Of a stretch of 64,000 bases of DNA, positions 52,924 to 61,500 are shown in pieces. The stretch comes from Candidatus Dojkabacteria bacterium (lineage in GTDB: Bacteria > Patescibacteriota > Dojkabacteria > SC72). A program made the translations under genes and the position numbers. Numbering within the stretch: position 1 is the first letter of the stretch; every line of letters starts with the position of its first letter. The stretch is from NCBI GenBank assembly GCA_050950145.1, contig JBMNHB010000001.1, positions 300,458 to 364,457 of the forward strand, in the 5' to 3' direction. The notes beneath the pieces were generated by a model that saw only the letters and a list, made by a program, of their open reading frames with translations, ran no database searches and was not told where the DNA came from.

Positions 52924-52996
52924 GCAGGGGTAGTTCAATGGTTAGAATATCTGTTTTCCAAACAGAGGGTTGCGGGTTCGAGTCCCGTCCCCTGCT
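52924..52996 (+). tRNA. tRNA-Gly (anticodon TCC), no encoded CCA
   Basis: GCAGGGGTAGTTCAATGGTTAGAATATCTGTTTTCCAAACAGAGGGTTGCGGGTTCGAGTCCCGTCCCCTGCT. With the standard single N26 the loop is TTTCCAA (anticodon UCC) and the discriminator U73 fits Gly. A 1-nt register shift would read CCA (Trp). Confidence 0.7.
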
Positions 52997-53069: not shown

Positions 53070-53636
53070 TTGAACATGAAGAATGTTGATGTACCAATGT
53101 GGGATAAAGGAGATAGTACTGATAACTTTGCAAAAGGTGGAGGTAGATCATCATTAAAATTTGATGATATCGTTAAAGAAGATAAAAAGATTATTGGATT
53201 GTTCAAATTAATACTAGGTAGAAAACCTTCAACACGAGAATCAGCATATTACAGAATTAGTAGGGCAAGTAAAGAAAATATTACAGAAAAACTAATTAAT
53301 AGTGAAGAACATAAAGAATTGATAGTTTCTGCTCAAAAGTATCCAGAAGTTCTAAAAGAAAAAAAACAATTAGAATCTACAGTTTTAAAACTAAAAAGTA
53401 ATATTGAAGATAGTGGGAAGGAGTTTGAAGAATTAAAGAAACTTTTAGAGGAAAAGAATAGAACTATTAGAGATCTTAGAGAAGAAAAAGACAAACCTTA
53501 TTTAACAAAGAAAGAACTTATAGAGGAATCAAACATATATTATTCAAAATTTTCTGAAAGAACACCTACTAAAAAATCATACAATGTTAACGATCAATCT
53601 CTGTGGGATAGAATACTAAAACTATTTTTTAAGTAA
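53070..53636 (+). CDS. DUF4214-like / coiled-coil hypothetical protein
   Basis: 'IIGLFKLILGRKPSTRESAYY' resembles the DUF4214 motif. Coiled-coil C-half. Confidence 0.35.
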   Translation: MNMKNVDVPMWDKGDSTDNFAKGGGRSSLKFDDIVKEDKKIIGLFKLILGRKPSTRESAYYRISRASKENITEKLINSEEHKELIVSAQKYPEVLKEKKQLESTVLKLKSNIEDSGKEFEELKKLLEEKNRTIRDLREEKDKPYLTKKELIEESNIYYSKFSERTPTKKSYNVNDQSLWDRILKLFFK

Positions 53637-53643
53637 AGAAATC

Positions 53644-53847
53644 ATGACTAGTAAAAAACTTGGAGAAAGATTAAAAAAGGCCAGGGAAGATAAAAAATTA
53701 ACACAAAGAGAGTTAGCTATAAAGGTAGGACTTTCAGATAAATCTATTAGTATCTACGAAAAAGGTAAAGTATATCCACCAATAAGAAATCTCCTTATGT
53801 TATCTAAAGAATTAGGTGTTGATATCTCCAAACTTCTAACTGACTAA
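53644..53847 (+). CDS. XRE-family helix-turn-helix transcriptional regulator
   Basis: 'KKLTQRELAIKVGLSDKSISIYEKGKVYPPIRNLLMLSKELGVDISKLL' is a Cro/C1-type HTH. Confidence 0.7.
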   Translation: MTSKKLGERLKKAREDKKLTQRELAIKVGLSDKSISIYEKGKVYPPIRNLLMLSKELGVDISKLLTD

Positions 53848-54431
53848 TTTGGTGGTGTTAACCATTTTTTTGCTTTCTCAGCTCCCTTTTTAGATAGTTT
53901 AATAATTACAAATATTAATACTCCTATTATTATTACTATTCCAAACGTCATTAGTATACTGATTATTTTGTATTCAGAACTTACAGGTTGAATAATAAGA
54001 TTTCCATCAAAGGTTAAGCTATCTGCAGTACTATTTGTGTAATTAGTGTCATGTTGCCAAGAAATAACAGAAACAGAGAGATTATATGTTCCGGGGTTTT
54101 CTGGCTTAACTACAGCTTTTACGGTATATGTTTCGCCTTCTTTCATTGCAATAAATCTTGCATGTTTCGGTCTTACATCTAGTGTAGGAGGATAGCTCCA
54201 AAGTATCTCAGTCTTTGGACTATCCATAAGAGGTTTAATATATAATGCATATGTTACACTTTTTCCAAATGGTGTTTGCTGTAGTCTCACAAGCTCTAAA
54301 TCAAAATATTTAGTATCCATAGTGTTCTCTTCTGTAGTTGTTGTTTCTAATTCAGTCTGTTGTGCAAAAACAGAAGTAGAAAAGAACATCAGGAACGAAA
54401 AGACAATTATTAGACTAACTATTTTTTTCAT
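53844..54431 (-). CDS. Secreted protein with C-terminal TM anchor (hypothetical)
   Basis: Signal peptide, beta-rich middle, C-terminal hydrophobic helix plus KK tail. Start overlaps the upstream gene (ATGA). Confidence 0.4.
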   Translation of the reverse strand: MKKIVSLIIVFSFLMFFSTSVFAQQTELETTTTEENTMDTKYFDLELVRLQQTPFGKSVTYALYIKPLMDSPKTEILWSYPPTLDVRPKHARFIAMKEGETYTVKAVVKPENPGTYNLSVSVISWQHDTNYTNSTADSLTFDGNLIIQPVSSEYKIISILMTFGIVIIIGVLIFVIIKLSKKGAEKAKKWLTPPN

Positions 54432-54847
54432 TTAAGGATCTTGTTAATACTAAATTTATATATGTTGAAAACATTTATCGCTTCCTCTTGATCTATATCA
54501 TAATCATTATGAACAATATCATTTCTTATCTTATGAACACTCCATAATTCATCTAATTCTTTTCTTTTAAAAATAGAACTTGATTTTTTTAAGTTATCAC
54601 CACAGGTATTTGTATTATTAAAGTAGTACTGTAAAGATTTTGTTAAAAGATTATCTAATTTTATAACGGAATCGCGTCTAACAGAACTATCCAGACTTTG
54701 TATATGTATCTCTAACTCTTTCAATTTATTAAGTATCTCAACCTTTCTTGAAGTGTCAATTTTTTTATTTGCAAAAGATACAGCAAGAAAAAGTACTACT
54801 ATTAACAGAAGAATTACAATTGTCATTGTTATACTTGTTGTTTGCAT
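54428..54847 (-). CDS. Small N-terminally anchored membrane protein (hypothetical)
   Basis: 139 aa with an N-terminal TM helix. 4-nt overlap with the downstream gene and 19-nt overlap with the upstream gene suggest an operon. Confidence 0.4.
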   Translation of the reverse strand: MQTTSITMTIVILLLIVVLFLAVSFANKKIDTSRKVEILNKLKELEIHIQSLDSSVRRDSVIKLDNLLTKSLQYYFNNTNTCGDNLKKSSSIFKRKELDELWSVHKIRNDIVHNDYDIDQEEAINVFNIYKFSINKILK

Positions 54848-56727
54848 TTCAACTTTTTAATGGTTTTAAATAATAGATATGATAACAGCAGAACAACAGA
54901 AAAGAAAATAAGTGAGAGAATTTTAGAAAGAATTGTTATATATTTTGGTGTACTATTAGGTAAATCTAATTTCATTGTAATATTTTCAGATATTCCAGTA
55001 AGATTACTAACACTTCCTGTTATGAATAATTTATTGGAATTCATCTTTTCAAATGGAATATTCAATTGTATATTATGATTTTGTTTTGGAAGTAGGAGTT
55101 TTGATGTTGTATTATTTACACTATCAATGTATTGAGAAATTTTTCTTAAATTAGATTTATCTAGCTTTATACTTGAGATTGCTATATTCCCATTATTTAA
55201 TATATCTATATCTGCTCTTATATATTTCTTCGTTATGTCGTAATCATCCATTGATAAATTTGTTTTTACTAACAAGCTTCTCTCCTTAAAGTCTTTATTA
55301 TCTAGCTCTACCAAGAAATCATTAGGTGTATAAAAAGTAAGAGTTGGTGACATAGGGTTCTTTCCTCTTCTTAGTATTGCTATATGATCAGCAAGTTCAT
55401 TGTTAAATAGGTTTTGCTTTCTATACTTTTCCATAAAAGGATCTACTGAAACCCATTCTGATTTTGTAATATCATAATATTCAACCCAATAGTGATAGAA
55501 TCCATCAGTTGTGTATCCTGATATATTTGAGACATATCCTAGAACCATTCTACTTGGTATAGAGAAATACCTTAGTAAAGCGATATAGAAGTCTGCAAAA
55601 TTAACAGGTGTTAGAGACGTACTGTTCCTTATAATAGAACTTATACTACTCCTGGTAGATTCAATTTGACCAAGTTTTATATCATCATTATAGTCTAATC
55701 TATATATGACATACTGGTATAGATATTTATAGAAAATTTCTTTCTCTTTTTCTTTCAGTAAAGTAATATCTTTAGCATTCTCATTAATAACCAATCCTTT
55801 ATCTTTCATAAAATTCAAAACTCTTTGTATTTCAACTGTATCAATCATTTCCCAGTATCCAATCTTTTTGGTTAAAACTTCTTTAGGTTGAGTGTTATGG
55901 GAATTTACTTCTTTTTGAATAAAACCAGTTATATGGCAATCAAGTGTTTTATTTGGTTCTACCATATAACTAAAAATGTAATTTCCATCATCATCTGTTA
56001 TAGAGGAGGTGGGGAGTGGGGATATCTCTTCCCAAATTATCGCTTGGAATTCAGAATCCATAGGTAATATTAATTCAAAAGTTTGAATTTGGTCTGTTGT
56101 ATTTGTGAAAACTCTGTTAACAGTAAATTTATACTGTATTCCATTTGAGAAAAATATGTATACCTCTGGATTTTTAGGTTCTTTAAATGTCACTTTATAT
56201 AGATTGTTTTCTAGTTCTTTATTTTGGATATTTTCGGAAGCCCAAGAAAATTCTCCTTTTTCTTTAGGGTATTTTACTATTACTTCTTTAGTGGTTGCAT
56301 CCAGAACTTTTGATTGTAAATTATAGGCAATTTCATTAGTGTTTGGGGTTGTATAGACAATTGTAATTTCAAAAGGAGATTCAGGAGTTATGACTCTATT
56401 TTTTAAATCAAACTGAATATCTGTAACTGAGGTTCTAATATATCTATCACATTTTATCTCCTCTGTTCCGTTTATGTAACATTTAGGGTTGATATTCTTA
56501 ACTTGTAAAGAAGTAGTGTATATTGAGAGAACTCTTGTTCTATCTGTTGTTAACTGTAAGGTAAGAGTGGTATTTACTTTATCTTCTTTTATTGTATGAA
56601 CAAAATATGAGTTAACATAAAATTCATCTTCTTGTGCTAATAGAGGGGTAATTGAAATAAAAAAGAATGGAACAAAAAGACTAATAAGTGACAGAATTCT
56701 CTTTAAATAACCACTTAAATTTCTCAT
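54829..56727 (-). CDS. Large secreted protein with transglutaminase-like (possibly non-catalytic) domain and C-terminal TM
   Basis: 'NFADFYIALLRYFSIPSRMVLGYV...DGFYHYWVEYYDITKSEWVSVDP' follows the TGase-core pattern (His, Asp present). The expected catalytic Cys position reads Asn. Confidence 0.4.
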   Translation of the reverse strand: MRNLSGYLKRILSLISLFVPFFFISITPLLAQEDEFYVNSYFVHTIKEDKVNTTLTLQLTTDRTRVLSIYTTSLQVKNINPKCYINGTEEIKCDRYIRTSVTDIQFDLKNRVITPESPFEITIVYTTPNTNEIAYNLQSKVLDATTKEVIVKYPKEKGEFSWASENIQNKELENNLYKVTFKEPKNPEVYIFFSNGIQYKFTVNRVFTNTTDQIQTFELILPMDSEFQAIIWEEISPLPTSSITDDDGNYIFSYMVEPNKTLDCHITGFIQKEVNSHNTQPKEVLTKKIGYWEMIDTVEIQRVLNFMKDKGLVINENAKDITLLKEKEKEIFYKYLYQYVIYRLDYNDDIKLGQIESTRSSISSIIRNSTSLTPVNFADFYIALLRYFSIPSRMVLGYVSNISGYTTDGFYHYWVEYYDITKSEWVSVDPFMEKYRKQNLFNNELADHIAILRRGKNPMSPTLTFYTPNDFLVELDNKDFKERSLLVKTNLSMDDYDITKKYIRADIDILNNGNIAISSIKLDKSNLRKISQYIDSVNNTTSKLLLPKQNHNIQLNIPFEKMNSNKLFITGSVSNLTGISENITMKLDLPNSTPKYITILSKILSLIFFSVVLLLSYLLFKTIKKLKCKQQV

Positions 56728-57415
56728 ATTTTCTTATTAGTTGTTTTATTACAGTTGTTTTTGGTGTTATTCCATAATCTTTAATAACCTTTTCCATATC
56801 CACTTTTTCAACTTCATTAACAATCTTGTAATTAGGATTTCTAACTACTTCTTGTTTGGCATTCTTCCTTATTACATAATATGCCATTCCACTATTATCA
56901 TCAAGGACTACTCTAGAGATAGCTTTAATAGACATTATTTCAGCAAAGATTAATGGTGTATTTTGTCTAGGATTAACAGCTACGAAGTCATAATTAGAAG
57001 GAATGATAATTTTTTGTCCTTTTTTAGCAACTATTTTTATAACCCTATTTTCTTTTGGTGACTTATATTGCTGAATTAACACTATTGCTGTTCCATTTAA
57101 TATTTCTATGATTCTTGGATACTTTTTACATCTGGTTACTTTTGTTTTAACAAACTCAATACCTGCAAGATTAGAATTCATAGTATATATGTGTAGTTTA
57201 ACCTTTTTAGAAGAGAGAACAGAATCAGTATCAACTTCAAAATACTTCTGATAGAATATTTCTGGGCAATCTAACTCTTTGTTAAGTAACTGTTCTCTTA
57301 TATCTTCAATTGTTACTATTTTCTTCCTCTTGCATCCAGAGTTTTTAAAGACTAATTCGTCATTTTCGTATATTATTGAAAATCCTGTTGTTGTCTTTAA
57401 ATCTATTTTTGCCAT
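56681..57415 (-). CDS. Cupin-fold protein resembling archaeal-type (cupin) phosphoglucose isomerase but lacking the metal-binding His/Glu residues
   Basis: 'EFVKTKVTRC...EILNGTAIVLIQ...KKGQKIIIPSNYDFVAVNPRQNTPLIFAEI' parallels the cupin-PGI 'EFFFTKGHFH...YVALKGKGGMLLQ...PGTVVYVPPYWAHRTVNIGDEPFIFLAIY' architecture by recall. HxH and the AHR His are absent. Confidence 0.3.
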   Translation of the reverse strand: MAKIDLKTTTGFSIIYENDELVFKNSGCKRKKIVTIEDIREQLLNKELDCPEIFYQKYFEVDTDSVLSSKKVKLHIYTMNSNLAGIEFVKTKVTRCKKYPRIIEILNGTAIVLIQQYKSPKENRVIKIVAKKGQKIIIPSNYDFVAVNPRQNTPLIFAEIMSIKAISRVVLDDNSGMAYYVIRKNAKQEVVRNPNYKIVNEVEKVDMEKVIKDYGITPKTTVIKQLIRKYEKFKWLFKENSVTY

Positions 57416-57469: not shown

Positions 57470-57760
57470 TTAATCATTGTTTCTATATGATTTTAGAAGT
57501 TCTGAAAGTATTATTCCGATAATAATATAGAAGACTAATGATAGTACAAGTACAGCTGGTATCTGTATCTTCCATATGTTAATGGTACTATTAACTATTC
57601 CTTGGAATGGAGCAGTCACAATATCACTTATTCTTGTTATCCAATAAACAATATCATTTTCCGGATTAGCATTTATAGCTATTAATACTATTCTTACTCC
57701 TAATATTCCTTGTATTACGATAGTAGCAAAATATGCAAGTCTAATTAGTAATTTAATCAT
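57470..57760 (-). CDS. YggT-family small membrane protein
   Basis: 96 aa, two TM helices with YggT-like spacing. Confidence 0.45.
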   Translation of the reverse strand: MIKLLIRLAYFATIVIQGILGVRIVLIAINANPENDIVYWITRISDIVTAPFQGIVNSTINIWKIQIPAVLVLSLVFYIIIGIILSELLKSYRNND

Positions 57761-57762
57761 AT

Positions 57763-58515
57763 TTATATTTTATCTAAATTATCTAAATAATACTGTAATT
57801 GTTGCATATATCTTGTAACACCATTTGCCCAAGCATGTTCTGGGTTTTGACCACATGGTGGACAGTATATCGGTTCTATTTCAAAAGGAGTCATTGTAGT
57901 CCCATATCCCTGAGCAAATCGTTCTGTTATATGTATAATTGCACTATCCCAGCTAGAAAATATACTCCAACCTCTATCATTACTATTTACACCCCTCCAT
58001 CCCCATGCATTATTTGTTCCACCTGGCGTTATATTCCCAAACGCAGACTCAACACCGGAAATAGAAGCAAGTAATCTCCAATCTAACCCATGTTTATCTG
58101 CTTCCTTTACGAATGTTTCTGCACTATTTGCCATCGGTGAGTGAAAGTCACTTAAAAACTTATTCATAGCAAGAACTCTTGGATCAATTACAAAGAATTT
58201 AGTATTTGAAATAGTTGAACTATTCAAGTTCTTACTGTATGTAGACATATTGTAACTTGTTGTGTTTGCATAGATATCATAAACAGGAGAGAGTACATTT
58301 ATAGTTGTAGTTTGTTTTGCTCTCATTACTATACCAATATGCTTTATAAAAAAACTTTCAACAGAGGGAGAGATAAAAATATAATAAAAGATAAGAAAAA
58401 CAAATAAAATAGAGACTCTAAAAATATTAGAGTTAAGTATCTCTTTAACATTTAATGCTTTTTCTTGATTATGCATTTCATCTGTCATAATATCTAGTAT
58501 ATCAAATTGGGGCAA
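57763..58515 (-). CDS. Secreted GH73/glucosaminidase-like putative peptidoglycan hydrolase (paralog of 4136..4759)
   Basis: N-terminal TM. 'DKHGLDWRLLASISGVESAFGNITPGGTNNAWGWRG' and 'YCPPCG...AWANGV' shared with 4136..4759. Confidence 0.5.
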   Translation of the reverse strand: MPQFDILDIMTDEMHNQEKALNVKEILNSNIFRVSILFVFLIFYYIFISPSVESFFIKHIGIVMRAKQTTTINVLSPVYDIYANTTSYNMSTYSKNLNSSTISNTKFFVIDPRVLAMNKFLSDFHSPMANSAETFVKEADKHGLDWRLLASISGVESAFGNITPGGTNNAWGWRGVNSNDRGWSIFSSWDSAIIHITERFAQGYGTTMTPFEIEPIYCPPCGQNPEHAWANGVTRYMQQLQYYLDNLDKI

Positions 58516-58523
58516 TATATGTT

Positions 58524-61500
58524 ATGTTCACTCATTTACATTTACATACAGAGTATTCCTTACTGGATGCAACTATACGAATTTCTGATCTAATAGAGAA
58601 GCTTAAGGCTAATAACATGAATGCGTGTGCGATTACAGATCATGGAAATATGTATGGGGCATATAAGTTTCAGAGCGCAATGAAAGCTGAAGGATTAAAA
58701 CCAATAATAGGTTGTGAGATATATATTGCACCAAGAAGTATGGAAGACAAAGAATATGGCATAGATAATAACTATTTTCACTTAGTTCTCTTAGCTAAAA
58801 ACTTAGAAGGTTACAAAAACCTTGTGAAAATTGTTTCTATAGCCCATATGGATGGTTTCTACTATAGACCTAGGATTGATATTGAAACATTAAAAAAACA
58901 CACAGGAGGATTAATTGCACTCTCAGCTTGTCTTGCTGGTCCAGTAGCTCAGCCTCTTTTGAATAATGATTACAAAAAAGCCAAGGAGAATGCAGAACTA
59001 TATTCAAAACTTTTCAAAGATAATTTCTACATTGAGATTCAAAGGAATGGAATGGAAGAACAGAACTTGGTTAATGAGGGTCTTATTAAGATAGCAAAAG
59101 AATTAGATCTTCCACTAGTAGCAACTTGTGATTCCCATTACCTAAATAGAGAGGATGCTGAAATACAAGAGATTCTATGGTGTATTTCAGATGGTACAAC
59201 AATGGATGATCCAAATAGAAGGAGAATGCCCACAAACGAATTCTATGTAAAAACTCCAGAACAGATGCAAGAACTCTTTAGTGATTTACCTGAGGCAGTT
59301 GAAAACACACAAAAAATAGCTGACTCAGTAGAAGAGTATGATATTACATTTGAAAGAGTTGAGACAAAGTTTTTAGATTTACCTAAAGGTGAGACAGCTC
59401 GGTCATACTTAAAGAAATTGACATATGAAGGTGCTAAGAAGAAGTATGGTGAAATAACAAAGGAGTTGAAAGAAAGGATTGATTATGAATTATCTTTGAT
59501 ACATGAGAAAGGTTACGACGATTACTTTTTGGTAGTTAGAGACTTTGTCCATTTTTGTCACGAAAACGACATTATTGTTGGTATGAGAGGCTCAGGTTGT
59601 GGTTCTGTTGTTGCCTATGCAACAGACATTACAAATATAGAACCAATTAAATGGGAACTGTACTTTGAAAGATTTCTTAACCCTGAGCGACCAAGTCCCC
59701 CTGATTTTGATATTGATATAGCAGATCAGAGAAGAGATGAAGTTATACAATACACAATTGATAAATACGGTATAGATAATGTAAAACAGATAGGAACCTT
59801 TAGCAAACTACAAACAAGACAAGCTATTAGGGATGTTGCAAGAGTTATAGGGATTGACTTAAAAACAGCTGATGCTCTATCAAAAATGGTTGAAATAGTT
59901 TTTGGTAAATCAAAAGGTATTGACTATATGATCGAGAAGAATCCTGAATTTGCAGAAATAATTAATTCTTCAGAAGAAACAAAGCATCTTGCAAACATTG
60001 TTAGAAAAATTTCAGGCCTTTGTAGAGGGATATCTACACATGCATGTGGAATTATCATTACTCCTACACCAGTTATTGAATATTGCCCAATACAAAGAGA
60101 TGCGCACGGAGGAGGTATTGGAATGACTCAGTACGAAATGTTTGATATAGAACCTCTTGGATTAATGAAATATGACTTTCTTGGTTTAAGAAACCTCCAT
60201 GTTATTGGAGCAGCACTTAAAAAGGTTGAAAGAAGTACCGGAGAGAAAATAGATTTAAGAGAAATAGACTATGAAGATCCAAAAGTCTTTGACTTAATTA
60301 AGTCTGGACATACTGTTGGGTTATTCCAAATGGAGAGTGAAGGAATGAAAAGAACAATTAGAACTCTTCAACCAGAGAACTTGGAGGATATCTGCTATAT
60401 TCTAGCTGCCTACAGACCAGGTCCAATGCAGTACATTACTGAATATCAGGCAGTAAAAACAGGCAAACAAGAACCAGATTACATATTTGATGAACTTGAA
60501 CCAGTTCTCTCAGTTACCAGAGGAGTTATTACATACCAAGAGCAGGTAATGAGAATAGCACAGATAATTGCAGGATACTCTCTAGGAAAAGCAGATGTCT
60601 TAAGAAGAGCAATGGGAAAAAAGATAGTTGAAGTTATGGAGAAAGAGAAACCGACCTTTGTAGAAGGAGCTATAAAGAACGGCTATGATAAGGAAAAAGT
60701 GGAGAAACTCTGGGATAAATTGCTTCAGTTTGCAAACTATGGCTTTAACAAAGCACATAGTGCATCATATGCAACAATAGCATATTGGACTGCATATCTT
60801 AAAACACACTACCCTTTGGAATATATGGCAGCTCTTTTAGAAGGAGATTTAGATAAGTTTGATAGGATAATACTTGATCTAAAAGAATGTAAAAGATTAG
60901 GAATTAATGTCCTCCCACCAGATATTAACAAGAGTGGATATTACTTTACATCTGATGATAACAACAGTATATGGTTTGGACTTGGTGGGATAAAGAATAT
61001 CGGTGGTGATCTTGTTAAATTAATAATCAAAGAGAGAGAAGAGAATGGTGAGTATCAGAACTTGGATGATTTTGTACACCGTGTATATGAAGATGTTGGT
61101 AAGAAAGCGATGGAGTATCTAATAATGGCAGGGACAATGGATTCTTTTGGAGATAGGTTAGATCTGTTAAAAACTTTTCCAACAGTTTATCAGAAAGAGA
61201 AAGATGACAGGAAAGCTAGTAGTGTAGGACAATTTGACTTTTTTTCACTGGGTCAAACAGAAGAAGGACAGAATAGGACAATTGCAACTCCACTTGAAAA
61301 AGATACAGAAACTGATAGAAATGTTTTGCTACAGTGGGAAAAAGATCTTTTAGGTCTCTACTTTTCAAGTCATCCTCTTGATAATCTTCAAGAGCTTTTC
61401 ATAACAAAAAATGTGGTAACATTGGAGGATGCATTGGAGTATAAAAAGAATAATGAAATGTTGGTTCTTGGTGTTATGATTAATAAAGTAAGAAAGGTGA

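Follow-up and report, generated by a model that had tools for sequence, protein, structure and literature searches.

A vertically inherited six-gene operon of Candidatus Dojkabacteria carries two conserved pseudo-enzymes and may serve the cell envelope

In the window analyzed here (the whole stretch of 64,000 nucleotides from a Candidatus Dojkabacteria contig), four overlapping genes are the downstream two-thirds of a six-gene operon that is inherited vertically and occurs in essentially every sampled member of the Dojkabacteria (CPR/WS6), a phylum of tiny genomes. Its cupin is a phosphoglucose isomerase (PGI)-fold protein that lacks all four metal ligands, and its 632-aa ectoprotein has a transglutaminase (TGase) fold that lacks the nucleophile. 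Each loss extends through the whole family, whereas homologues in outgroups are intact. We tentatively, and with somewhat less than even confidence, regard the operon as a vertically inherited membrane/envelope module built from exapted pseudo-enzymes, with cell-wall remodelling, envelope maintenance or division as its most likely role; a part in sugar metabolism, or in adhesion acquired horizontally, is less likely. If this is true, the operon represents neither metabolism nor a mobile adhesion island. No description of the operon or module was found in the searchable literature.

Gene organization

The operon lies on the minus strand and runs, 5′ to 3′, through p250 (57763..58515), a 96-aa YggT/YlmG-like protein (57470..57760), the 244-aa cytoplasmic cupin of PGI family PF06560 without a metal site (56681..57415), the 632-aa extracytoplasmic TGase-like pseudo-enzyme (54829..56727), the 139-aa p139 (54428..54847) and the 195-aa p195 (53844..54431). 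These six genes form a co-directional, tightly packed unit with modal spacings of +2 (p250 to YggT), +24 (YggT to cupin), -47 (cupin to TGase-like), -8 and -4 nt, and no terminator-like sites were found inside the block. A preliminary description of this DNA had proposed a four-gene operon with overlaps of 47, 19 and 4 nt. The coordinates and overlaps were confirmed and the four genes are co-directional, but the unit also includes the genes at 57470-57760 and 57763-58515.

The 47-nt out-of-frame overlap (56681..56727, minus strand), in which the 3′ end of the cupin gene lies over the 5′ end of the TGase-like gene, is more than chance, because 82 of the 85 orthologous loci compared keep a start codon at -47 (ATG in 80 of 85) and cupin wobble conservation is doubled inside it, with a third-position information content of 1.29 bits within the overlap versus 0.63 bits outside. 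Both reading frames are constrained in this interval. The overlap is exactly -47 in 72/76 loci, and the TGase-like ATG is embedded within conserved ...KYEKF... cupin codons.

Three further features lie on the plus strand: a 67-aa XRE-family HTH gene (53644..53847; HTH_19 54 bits, HTH_3 46 bits), the gene for the 188-aa coiled-coil protein p188 (53070..53636) and a tRNA-Gly(tcc) at 52924..52996, where a tRNA had been noted before. The HTH assignment made in the preliminary description held, and this gene adjoins the block even in distant lineages, but it is convergent with the operon (tail-to-tail, the 3′ ends of XRE and p195 overlapping by 4 nt) and not divergent as had been stated. p188 is a conserved neighbor whose N-terminal motif only weakly resembles DUF4214, as the match appears in one orthologue at E 0.005, below the cut-off.

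Synteny and vertical inheritance

Database proteins that are 100% identical to those of the window carry the name Candidatus Dojkabacteria. The cupin is encoded in 110 species-representative genomes, and 80 loci were fetched. The same order, DnaE, p250, YggT-like, cupin, TGase-like, p139, p195, XRE, p188, tRNA-Gly, L19 and iPGM, recurs in about 80 species-level genomes, and the arrangement from DnaE through iPGM was seen in nearly every sufficiently long Dojkabacteria locus. p250 is present in 83/86 loci and, in most of the 82 compared, is followed in the same direction by the next gene at a distance of 1-20 nt; XRE occupies the same position in 60 loci, p188 was found in 68, and tRNA-Gly sits between p188 and L19 in 22/23 scanned loci. 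Even in L030, where the locus is rearranged, the four genes for cupin, TGase, p139 and p195 have stayed together.

The preliminary description had read the region as an accessory island at a tRNA, and had held that presence of the block in all relatives away from a tRNA would count against this. The block is in essentially all sampled relatives and is still beside the tRNA, which is itself part of the conserved synteny. A mobile accessory island is ruled out by the synteny of the block, both flanks and the tRNA across about 80 species, together with the lack of any phage-family (PHROG) match in the block; the tRNA-Gly belongs to the conserved gene order as a landmark and does not mark a site where the operon block integrated.

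Conserved loss of catalytic residues

The cupin passes the Pfam GPI model PF06560 (44.2 bits versus a cut-off of 20.7) and has no signal peptide or TM segment by hydropathy. The best PDB matches (Foldseek) of its AF2 model (pLDDT 84, pTM 0.86) are the cupin PGIs of P. furiosus and T. litoralis, with E 4e-10, target TM 0.70 and ~205 aligned columns. Judged from this model, the predicted fold match spans the whole PGI and not merely the ~90 residues first reported, and the similarity is not spurious. The loss of metal ligands that had been described is borne out: all four are replaced (H88 to T94, H90 to C96, E97 to R101 and H136 to F144), His is found at the three ligand columns in 0/181 unique cupin sequences, and the Glu column holds R (167) or K (14). 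Among outgroup cupins, HHEH is kept in 54/129 full-length representatives. A "KN" motif at positions 183-185 (RKN in the window copy) is common to the ligand-less relatives only. Strong purifying selection acts on the cupin: its sequences from 80 species have a median identity of 58%, against 64% for iPGM, and vary little in length (243-247 aa).

It could be argued that the cupin is still a working, metal-independent sugar-phosphate isomerase or epimerase whose operon partners are coincidental neighbors. It passes the GPI cut-off, carries the NCBI name "glucose-6-phosphate isomerase family protein", is strongly conserved, and has invariant E87, K90, T91, N148 and Q151 that align with positions conserved in true PGIs; metal-free cupin enzymes also exist, such as the RmlC-type epimerases. 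We nevertheless consider this improbable, as the lost ligands include Glu97, which we take to be also the proposed catalytic base of the P. furiosus enzyme, and coincidence hardly explains the 47-nt overlap or the way in which YggT, p195 and XRE genes recur near the cupin in distant lineages. Conserved residues inside the barrel (R101, K90, T91 and E87) could still allow catalysis or ligand binding that needs no metal. In one ligand-less cupin lineage (L089/L090), neither YggT nor an ectoprotein is found next to the cupin; the role of the cupin may therefore be independent of the module.

With 40 bits against Transglut_core PF01841, the 632-aa protein is above the cut-off of 23. It consists of a signal peptide, an N-terminal beta-sandwich resembling M1-aminopeptidase and Ost1 N-domains, a Cys-less TGase core, a C-terminal beta-sandwich that resembles FlaF and FlaG of the archaellum in structure, and a TM anchor at the C-terminus. 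Among the structural neighbors of the TGase fold are PeiW (a wall isopeptidase), LapG (a periplasmic protease) and protein 4.2 (a membrane scaffold that also lacks the Cys). The nucleophile is absent, as had been claimed, but the column in which the canonical Cys would stand holds Pro374, as seen in a BLASTP alignment with a homologue that has the Cys and in the MSA with P0189, and not Asn376, which replaces an Asp kept in 123/130 orthologues. Cys occurs at the nucleophile column in 0/130 of these proteins and the catalytic His is not strictly kept among them, while Cys-His-Asp is kept in the outgroup homologues L088 and P0189 (unassigned metagenome contigs). Both enzyme-like proteins are thus conserved pseudo-enzymes and not lineage-specific accidents, in agreement with the pseudo-enzyme reading of the preliminary description, and its view that the cluster is not central metabolism is supported.

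Membrane proteins and conserved companions

Hydropathy agrees with the earlier topology assignments, with a signal peptide and C-terminal TM segment in the TGase-like protein and in p195, and one N-terminal TM helix in p139. p195 has a signal peptide, a variable acidic/Thr-rich linker, a conserved ectodomain (VSVISWQxDTNYTNS) that we read from its sequence as a probable beta-sandwich, a TM anchor and a cytoplasmic tail, KxWLTPP, in which the W, T and P positions are kept in 68-70 of 70 sequences and L in 61/70.

C-anchored TGase-like and p195 proteins could form or anchor a structural, S-layer-type surface layer in which conserved NxT/S sequons are glycosylation sites. Their type I topology with C-terminal anchors, the DTNYTNS motif with its two sequons, and the resemblance of the TGase-like N-domain to OST subunit 1 and of its C-domain to FlaF and FlaG are in keeping with such a layer. 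It would leave the cytoplasmic partners (the cupin and the HEPN-like domain of p139) unexplained, and we think it has a small chance of being correct.

Distant lineages retain YggT, the ligand-less cupin, a C-anchored ectoprotein, a p195 homologue, XRE and p188. In Dojkabacteria as well as in the L091/92, L093, L094 and L095/96 lineages, a YggT-like gene directly precedes the ligand-less cupin gene; p195 homologues follow the latter in L091 (E 4e-27), L095 (2e-17) and L097 (1e-16), XRE homologues adjoin the cupin/p195 pair in L095 (E 1.6e-15) and L097 (E 7e-18), and L095 has a p188 homologue (E 2.7e-9). For the outgroup ectoproteins found in place of the TGase-like protein (448 and 455 aa), no homology was detected for the 448-aa protein and neither gave a TGase HMM match; therefore the TGase-like part may not be integral to the ancestral function.

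p139 has basic residues after its TM helix, followed by a cytoplasmic helical domain with the invariant HEPN-like (Rx4H) motif HK-x-RN-xx-VH, in which H105, K106, R108, N109, V112 and H113 are present in 71/71 sequences. Its Pfam matches, to HepT-like, HEPN_Apea, Csm6_HEPN, Swt1 HEPN and DUF4145, are collinear and sub-threshold, the C-terminal part of the PADLOC Csx1 model matches at E 0.005, and several orthologues are labelled "YutE (UPF0331/DUF86)" by JGI. One reading of these features is a toxin-antitoxin or defence-type element with p139 as HEPN RNase toxin, XRE as antitoxin or repressor and the other proteins as sensors. The invariant RNxxxH, the weak HepT, Csm6 and Csx1 matches and the adjacent XRE gene, which matches many defence-associated HTH models, would suit it. 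We regard it as very improbable, however: the block is core and syntenic rather than patchy, outgroup versions keep XRE without p139, XRE is convergent with p139 and not co-transcribed, and the other proteins have no significant PADLOC or PHROG matches. The defence-family (PADLOC) matches in the block were limited to generic HTH models and the single weak Csx1 match.

In p250, a TM segment at the N-terminus precedes a lysozyme-superfamily-like ectodomain that contains the motifs GLDWRL..SISGVESAFGN..NNAWGWRG and CPPC; the true start of the protein is probably the invariant Met10 (ATG near 58488). GVES is invariant in 80/80 sequences, and PDB profile alignments with goose-type lysozyme and lytic murein transglycosylase place their ES motif on it, which suggests, in our reading, that the Glu of GVES is the catalytic residue. 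Sub-threshold matches were obtained to Glucosaminidase PF01832 in 6/13 members (best E 0.0016) and to SLT_2 in 3/13. The YggT-like protein has TM segments at 8-32 and 62-91 by hydropathy and scores 13.9 bits in the window, below the Pfam YGGT cut-off, while the L091 orthologue scores 29.2 bits against a cut-off of 27.

A candidate envelope function

The presumably co-transcribed lysozyme-like and YggT-like genes point more to the organism's own envelope than to adhesion. A host-attachment module without an island, in which the TGase-like and p195 ectodomains grip a host cell and the cytoplasmic parts regulate or anchor, is conceivable for presumed episymbionts such as Dojkabacteria, and would account for secreted, membrane-anchored products with beta-sandwich modules. 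The TGase-like protein is the fastest-evolving of the block, followed by p195 (median identities of 39% and 43.5%), and the p195 linker varies in length; a fast TGase-like protein and variable p195 linkers also fit a host-facing surface protein and count against the envelope reading. We still judge attachment unlikely in view of the strict synteny over about 80 species, the absence of adhesin-typical gene-content variability, repeats and size polymorphism, the tight co-directional spacing with genes for a lysozyme-like enzyme and for a YggT protein of the division-cluster type, and the outgroups that swap the TGase-like protein yet keep cupin, YggT and p195.

The predicted topologies are consistent with a membrane complex. 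In the envelope module that we favor, the two dead enzymes would act as binding or scaffold parts and not as catalysts. The small YggT-like protein may keep the soluble cupin at the membrane, on the model of Streptomyces SepG, possibly with the help of the conserved WLTPP cytoplasmic tail of p195. On the outer side, three parts would bind or cut the cell's own wall: the TGase-like domain without its Cys, the ectodomain of p195 and the lysozyme-like p250. p139 would provide a membrane-tethered cytoplasmic HEPN-like domain, which might act as an RNase or bind nucleotides as its output. The convergent XRE and p188 would be conserved companions, maybe regulators.

The lysozyme-like, window YggT and HEPN assignments are below curated thresholds, which counts against an envelope role.

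Comparison with known systems

Soluble SsgB depends on SepG (YlmG/YggT) for its localisation to the membrane at Streptomyces division sites (PMC4852450). The operon shares with this system a two-TM YggT-family protein of ~95 aa, a gene adjoining that of a soluble partner, a proposed anchoring function and an envelope/division context (PMC4852450). Here, however, a cupin takes the place of the SsgB-like partner, dcw-cluster genes do not adjoin the operon, and an interaction between YggT-like protein and cupin is suggested only by gene adjacency across lineages.

p139 resembles HepT-like/DUF86 and other HEPN RNases (Rx4-6H) in its invariant R-N-x-x-x-H, which lies close to the C-terminal end of a ~105-aa helical domain. 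Unlike them, it is membrane-tethered by its N-terminal TM helix, has no MNT partner and is core rather than accessory, and its matches are below significance thresholds.

Known relatives of the TGase-like protein are bacterial transglutaminase-like putative cysteine proteases (PDB 3isr from Cytophaga hutchinsonii and 3kd4, BDI_1141). With L088 and P0189 it has the entire architecture in common (signal peptide, beta domain, TGase core, beta domain and TM anchor) at 25% identity, but these homologues adjoin SecG and an SBP gene rather than a cupin, and all 130 Dojkabacteria proteins differ from the Cys-bearing homologues in lacking the nucleophile. Erythrocyte protein 4.2 is likewise a Cys-less transglutaminase-fold membrane scaffold, although it is eukaryotic, cytoplasmic and of an unrelated lineage, and its Cys loss is independent.

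With the cupin-type PGIs (PF06560; Pyrococcus furiosus and Thermococcus litoralis; PDB 1x82, 1qxj, 1j3p) the window cupin has in common the fold over ~200 residues and the framework residues G85, E87, T91, G108, Q115, P139, N148 and N193. In contrast to those enzymes, it has T, C, R and F in place of the ligands H88, H90, E97 and H136, is extended at its C-terminus by ~45 aa that form three short helices, belongs to hosts reported to be without the pathway, and is embedded in a putative envelope operon.

Conserved gene order and ancestry

The gene block forms a tightly coupled operon that has been passed on vertically, in contrast to the preliminary description, which saw in it an accessory module and a possible island at a tRNA gene. 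Database proteins with 100% identity to the cupin and the TGase-like protein carry the name Candidatus Dojkabacteria (CPR/WS6). Scanning species-representative genomes with the cupin alignment recovered relatives in 110 genomes; the lineage, where one is named, is mostly Dojkabacteria/WS6, and many of the others are labelled 'uncultured Candidatus Saccharibacteria' or Patescibacteria. From these, 80 loci were retrieved. Synteny was assessed by tblastn of eleven window proteins against these loci. The common order is dnaE (minus), then p250, a YggT-like gene, cupin, TGase-like, p139 and p195 (plus), then the genes for the XRE protein, p188 and L19 (all minus) and iPGM (plus), where p139, p188, p195 and p250 are named for the lengths of their products. 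The dnaE-to-iPGM order recurs in nearly every long-enough locus of the 80 species loci, and in 22 of the 23 loci scanned the gap between p188 and L19 holds the tRNA-Gly(tcc), located at 52924-52996 in the window. This shared synteny indicates that the block, both flanks and the tRNA-Gly are ancestral backbone. Presence of the block in all relatives at a non-tRNA site had been named as the outcome that would speak against an island; the block is essentially present throughout, and it sits beside a tRNA gene that is itself part of the backbone.

None of the operon proteins matches a PHROG phage family, and synteny together with this absence rules out a genomic island. Integrase-like Pfam domains were not found among eight neighbouring proteins. 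The GC content is 0.27-0.30 over 53-58 kb compared with 0.28-0.385 elsewhere in the window, a small dip inside the window's range. In three relatives' loci (L028, L057 and L086) the p188 homologue is separated from tRNA-Gly/L19 by an additional 2.7-4.5 kb, and in L003, on the same contig as L057, the extra region between p188 and the tRNA includes a class-I tRNA-synthetase-family gene. Such extra DNA in some genomes points to the tRNA flank as a variable spot, with the operon not being the insert. The window's L19 (52385-52915) has 176 aa including a Glu/Lys-rich C-terminal tail of ~55-60 aa, and orthologues in related loci have 135-168 aa.

Operon limits and a constrained gene overlap

Four minus-strand ORFs, cupin (56681-57415, 244 aa), TGase-like (54829-56727, 632 aa), p139 (54428-54847, 139 aa) and p195 (53844-54431, 195 aa), overlap by 47, 19 and 4 nt, exactly as first described from the sequence. 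The unit is six genes, not four, as it also takes in p250 and the YggT-like gene. Across loci the modal spacing is +2 nt from p250 to the YggT-like gene (mostly 1-20), +21 to +28 nt from there to cupin, -8 nt between TGase-like and p139 (45 loci) and -4 nt between p139 and p195 (47 loci); cupin and TGase-like are spaced at -47 nt in 72 of 76 loci. One rearranged locus from a yak rumen MAG (L030, 9355-13664) reads iPGM (minus), L19 and tRNA-Gly, immediately followed by cupin, TGase-like, p139 and p195, with dnaE, p250, YggT, XRE and p188 not found nearby; the four genes first described thus hold together as a sub-unit. A promoter and terminator scan of the block was uninformative, with fewer promoter-like sites than in shuffled controls and no terminators.

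The out-of-frame cupin/TGase-like overlap (window 56681-56727, minus strand; orthologous positions in L007-L086) is, by its codon statistics, under selection. Of 85 loci, 82 have a start codon at -47 (ATG in 80), which lies within the conserved cupin ...KYEKF... codons. Third-codon information content in cupin, 0.63 bits upstream of the overlap, approximately doubles to 1.29 bits within it, and this rise at wobble positions argues that both frames are constrained and that the annotated TGase-like start is real. A frameshift fusion of the two products was rejected, since it would put a cytoplasmic domain before a signal peptide and each frame has its own conserved start or stop.

At the other end of the operon, the listed p250 start in the p250 region (57763-58523) is a TTG at 58515; dnaE, which diverges from it, starts at 58524, leaving only 8 nt between the two. 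Orthologue alignment suggests that the start is likely Met10, an ATG near 58488; even so, the p250/dnaE gap would be only ~35 nt for two divergent promoters.

A phosphoglucose isomerase fold without metal ligands

Single-sequence PDB searches with the cupin and TGase-like proteins gave chance-level matches only, so profile and fold searches were needed for both. The cupin matches the Pfam GPI family PF06560 over residues 66-196 (44.2 bits; cut-off 20.7). Its AF2 model (pLDDT 84.3, pTM 0.86) is closest by Foldseek to the cupin-type phosphoglucose isomerases (PGI) of P. furiosus and T. litoralis (1x82, 1qxj, 1j3p; E 4e-10, target TM 0.70, ~205 columns), followed by the vicilins as the next fold class (E 4e-6). 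The reported loss of metal ligands was borne out by HMM alignment, in which H88, H90, E97 and H136 of P. furiosus PGI correspond to T94, C96, R101 and F144, and it extends to the orthologues: the three His columns lack His in all 181 unique sequences, and at the Glu column 167 of them have R and 14 have K. Judging by these residues, the cupin is probably catalytically disabled in every orthologue. Residual metal-independent sugar chemistry is improbable. Judging from the report of Wrighton et al., a PGI here would be without pathway context.

The protein is nearly constant in length (243-247 aa), with a median identity across 80 species of 58%, where iPGM reaches 64% and DnaE 71%. Dojkabacteria genomes are ~0.6-0.9 Mb and have very few interpretable functions. 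In genomes so small and poorly interpretable, a block that keeps its order across the sampled phylum and is conserved to about the degree of housekeeping genes is likely central to Dojkabacteria biology.

A transglutaminase-like protein without its cysteine

The TGase-like protein matches Transglut_core PF01841 (40 bits; cut-off 23) and has a TGase/papain-like core fold. Its AF2 model (pLDDT 83.6) runs from a signal peptide through an N-terminal beta-sandwich, the TGase core and a C-terminal beta-sandwich to a TM helix. The position of the catalytic Cys was set by alignment with the homologues P0189 ('ALCMEFTD') and L088 ('VICQEYAD'), both of which have the Cys. Loss of the Cys had been proposed and holds in 130 of 130 orthologues, where the column is P, S, A, Q, N, T or D; the proposed Asn replacement does not, as the residue in register is Pro374 and not Asn376, whose own column is Asp in 123 of the 130. 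The other two positions were said to be kept: Asp429 is indeed D or E, and of the same 130 sequences 112 have H at His412, 14 have N and 4 have S. No alternative conserved Cys near the core was seen in the orthologue alignment. On this alignment, the TGase-like protein is catalytically disabled in every orthologue.

Homologues in outgroups, i.e., lineages beyond Dojkabacteria, share the whole architecture, retain Cys-His-Asp and adjoin SecG and an SBP gene rather than a cupin. P0189 has LexA, a holin-like protein, SecG and SBP as neighbours; as cupin is absent there, this context does not represent an ancestral form of the operon.

Other products of the operon

By hydropathy, the TGase-like protein and p195 have a signal peptide and a C-terminal TM anchor, p139 has a single N-terminal TM helix followed by basic residues, and the cupin has no hydrophobic segment. 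The product p250 consists of a TM segment and an ectodomain with invariant GVES (80/80) and CPPC motifs. Sub-threshold matches to Glucosaminidase PF01832 (GH73) occur in 6 of 13 members (best E 0.0016), and SLT_2 is matched by 3 of 13, none shown reaching curated cut-offs. In PDB profile alignments, GVES coincides with the ES motif found in goose-type lysozyme and in a lytic murein transglycosylase. The protein is probably a hydrolase of peptidoglycan glycan strands. The YggT-like protein crosses the membrane with two TM segments; against YGGT PF02325 (cut-off 27) the copy in the window reaches 13.9 bits, the orthologue at L091, an outgroup locus, scores above it at 29.2 bits, and that of L003/L004 is flagged CCB3_YggT by precomputed annotations.

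All 71 p139 sequences share H105, K106, R108, N109, V112 and H113, which form an HK-x-RN-xx-VH (Rx4H) motif of the Rx4-6H type that HEPN proteins carry in a C-terminal helix. Sub-threshold HEPN matches (E 0.005-0.06), collinear for several families, come from five Pfam HEPN families, HepT-like, Csm6 and Apea among them, and from PADLOC Csx1, whose C-terminal part (positions 297-402 of 440) aligns at E 0.005; the HepT-like model pairs p139 residues 58-125 with profile positions 39-105 of 120. Several orthologues are named YutE/DUF86 by JGI, and a PDB profile search with p139 returned no HEPN match. Taken at sequence level, a membrane-tethered HEPN-like domain is probable. The gene is present in 73 of the 86 compared loci, mostly Dojkabacteria, and was undetected in outgroup versions of the module.

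The XRE protein, a 67-aa product on the plus strand (53644-53847), matches HTH_19 (54.2 bits) and HTH_3 (45.8 bits) above cut-off. Its gene had been described as divergent from the block and is instead convergent, the 3' ends overlapping by 4 nt. A HEPN-like domain beside an HTH protein could suggest a toxin or defence element. The PADLOC defence families yielded only generic HTH models for the XRE protein and, among the operon proteins, nothing but the weak Csx1 match of p139; on these results a defence system was set aside, and we regard a HEPN/XRE toxin or defence element as very improbable.

The p195 ectodomain carries a conserved motif, VSVISWQxDTNYTNS, and its cytoplasmic tail a near-invariant WLTPP (of 70 sequences, 68-70 keep W, T and P and 61 keep L), of which a W-(I/L)...P form is retained in outgroup homologues. 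The tail may be a docking site. The DTNYTNS segment is near-invariant and contains two N-x-S/T sequons, and it may be a glycosylation site.

A ligand-less branch beyond Dojkabacteria

An exhaustive profile search over 1.84 billion representatives (E <= 1e-3) returned 510 proteins, most of them 240-275 aa and aligned over their whole length. The four ligands (HHEH) are kept in 54 of 129 full-length representatives and all absent in 63, with 12 intermediate; most ligand-less ones have RKN or SKN, a shared 'KN' motif, at positions 183-185. The ligand-less proteins, about half of the full-length PF06560 representatives related to the cupin (among P0310-P0459 and loci L088-L098), are of the kind that pipelines annotate as 'glucose-6-phosphate isomerase family'.

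The gene contexts of these relatives vary. L094 has p250, YggT, cupin and TGase-like, the contig ending within the last; L093 has YggT, cupin and an ORF beginning 'MKNLTGF...' that overlaps by 62 nt. In L091/L092, YggT and cupin are followed by a 448-aa C-anchored ectoprotein and a p195 homologue (E 4e-27). L095/L096 have YggT, cupin, a 455-aa C-anchored ectoprotein, a p195 homologue (E 2e-17), a 259-aa TM/coiled-coil protein and XRE (E 1.6e-15), with a p188 homologue on the other strand (E 2.7e-9), and L097 has cupin, a p195 homologue and XRE. A different context is seen in the ligand-less lineage of L089/L090 (DnaJ, cupin, rhomboid, ADK, Mur ligase), and in L088 a ligand-intact cupin copy lies apart from YggT. 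Homology of the 448-aa ectoprotein of L091 to the TGase family was undetectable (hhalign probability 0.2%), and for this reason we do not claim it as a deletion of the TGase core. The outgroup contexts point to a deeper core of YggT, ligand-less cupin, C-anchored ectoprotein(s) including p195, and XRE (plus p188, a 188-aa coiled-coil protein in the window, 53070-53636, plus strand). TGase-like and p139 are Dojkabacteria-specific elaborations.

In outgroups, a gene for an HD-domain protein (OB-fold + HD, or TraI_2 + HD) lies directly upstream of cupin or of the YggT-cupin pair (L091 5593-6570; L095 5434-6513; L098 1-486), occupying the site of the lysozyme-like p250 of Dojkabacteria.

Possible function and significance

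The components come from known superfamilies, and thus neither a new fold nor new chemistry is involved. What is new is the large ligand-less PF06560 branch, its recurrent coupling to YggT, p195 and XRE, and the finding that a PGI and a TGase-type protein became pseudo-enzymes in parallel within one operon conserved across the sampled phylum. A full-text literature search yielded no relevant work linking cupin/PGI or YggT to Dojkabacteria, CPR or Patescibacteria, and on transglutaminase only unrelated work, CPR-C4 included. A glycolytic isomerase and a transglutaminase-type protease appear to have given up catalysis in parallel and become parts of a membrane module, with active relatives in other sampled lineages. 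Automatic 'glucose-6-phosphate isomerase' labels on the ligand-less branch (63/129) can mislead metabolic reconstructions of CPR and are a likely source of false PGI assignments.

The products comprise extracytoplasmic anchored proteins (p250, TGase-like, p195), integral or tethered ones (YggT, p139) and a soluble cytoplasmic one (cupin). We consider it very probable that this is a core operon of the envelope, two of whose products are conserved pseudo-enzymes. The dead enzymes would serve as binding or scaffold modules, with YggT and/or the p195 tail recruiting the cupin to the membrane. Outside the membrane, the module and the lysozyme-like p250 would engage the cell's own wall; p139 could provide an RNA- or nucleotide-directed cytoplasmic output, and XRE and p188 would be conserved companions of the operon. 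The explanation as a whole is tentative, somewhat short of an even chance, and a specific wall-remodelling or division mechanism is more doubtful still. Anchored ectoproteins could instead face outward, to a host or to the surface layer: host attachment is unlikely, and an S-layer or structural role rather more so.

A fuller extension of the core envelope operon, also improbable, would be a Patescibacteria-specific trans-envelope sensing and remodelling machine built from exapted dead enzymes. Here the metal-free pseudo-PGI would keep its sugar-phosphate pocket, sense wall-precursor supply (F6P, G6P or GlcN6P) in the cytoplasm, dock on YggT and the p195 WLTPP tail, and be coupled to the Cys-less TGase-like protein as a wall-binding ectodomain and to the external lysozyme-like hydrolase; in Dojkabacteria, p139 as a membrane-tethered HEPN RNase would give an Ire1-like output. 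The functions offered here are proposals, and the operon provides a testable lead into CPR envelope biology together with a caution for metabolic annotation.

CPR-C4 is a homodimeric, vasohibin-like transglutaminase-like protease of CPR with an intact Cys-His triad; it was judged unrelated to the TGase-like protein because of that triad and its absence among the fold-search matches listed. The poorly understood YggT/YlmG family gains a new candidate soluble partner in the cupin, and there is a precedent for its proposed recruitment by YggT, in that SepG (YlmG/YggT) is needed to localise the soluble SsgB at Streptomyces division sites (PMC4852450).
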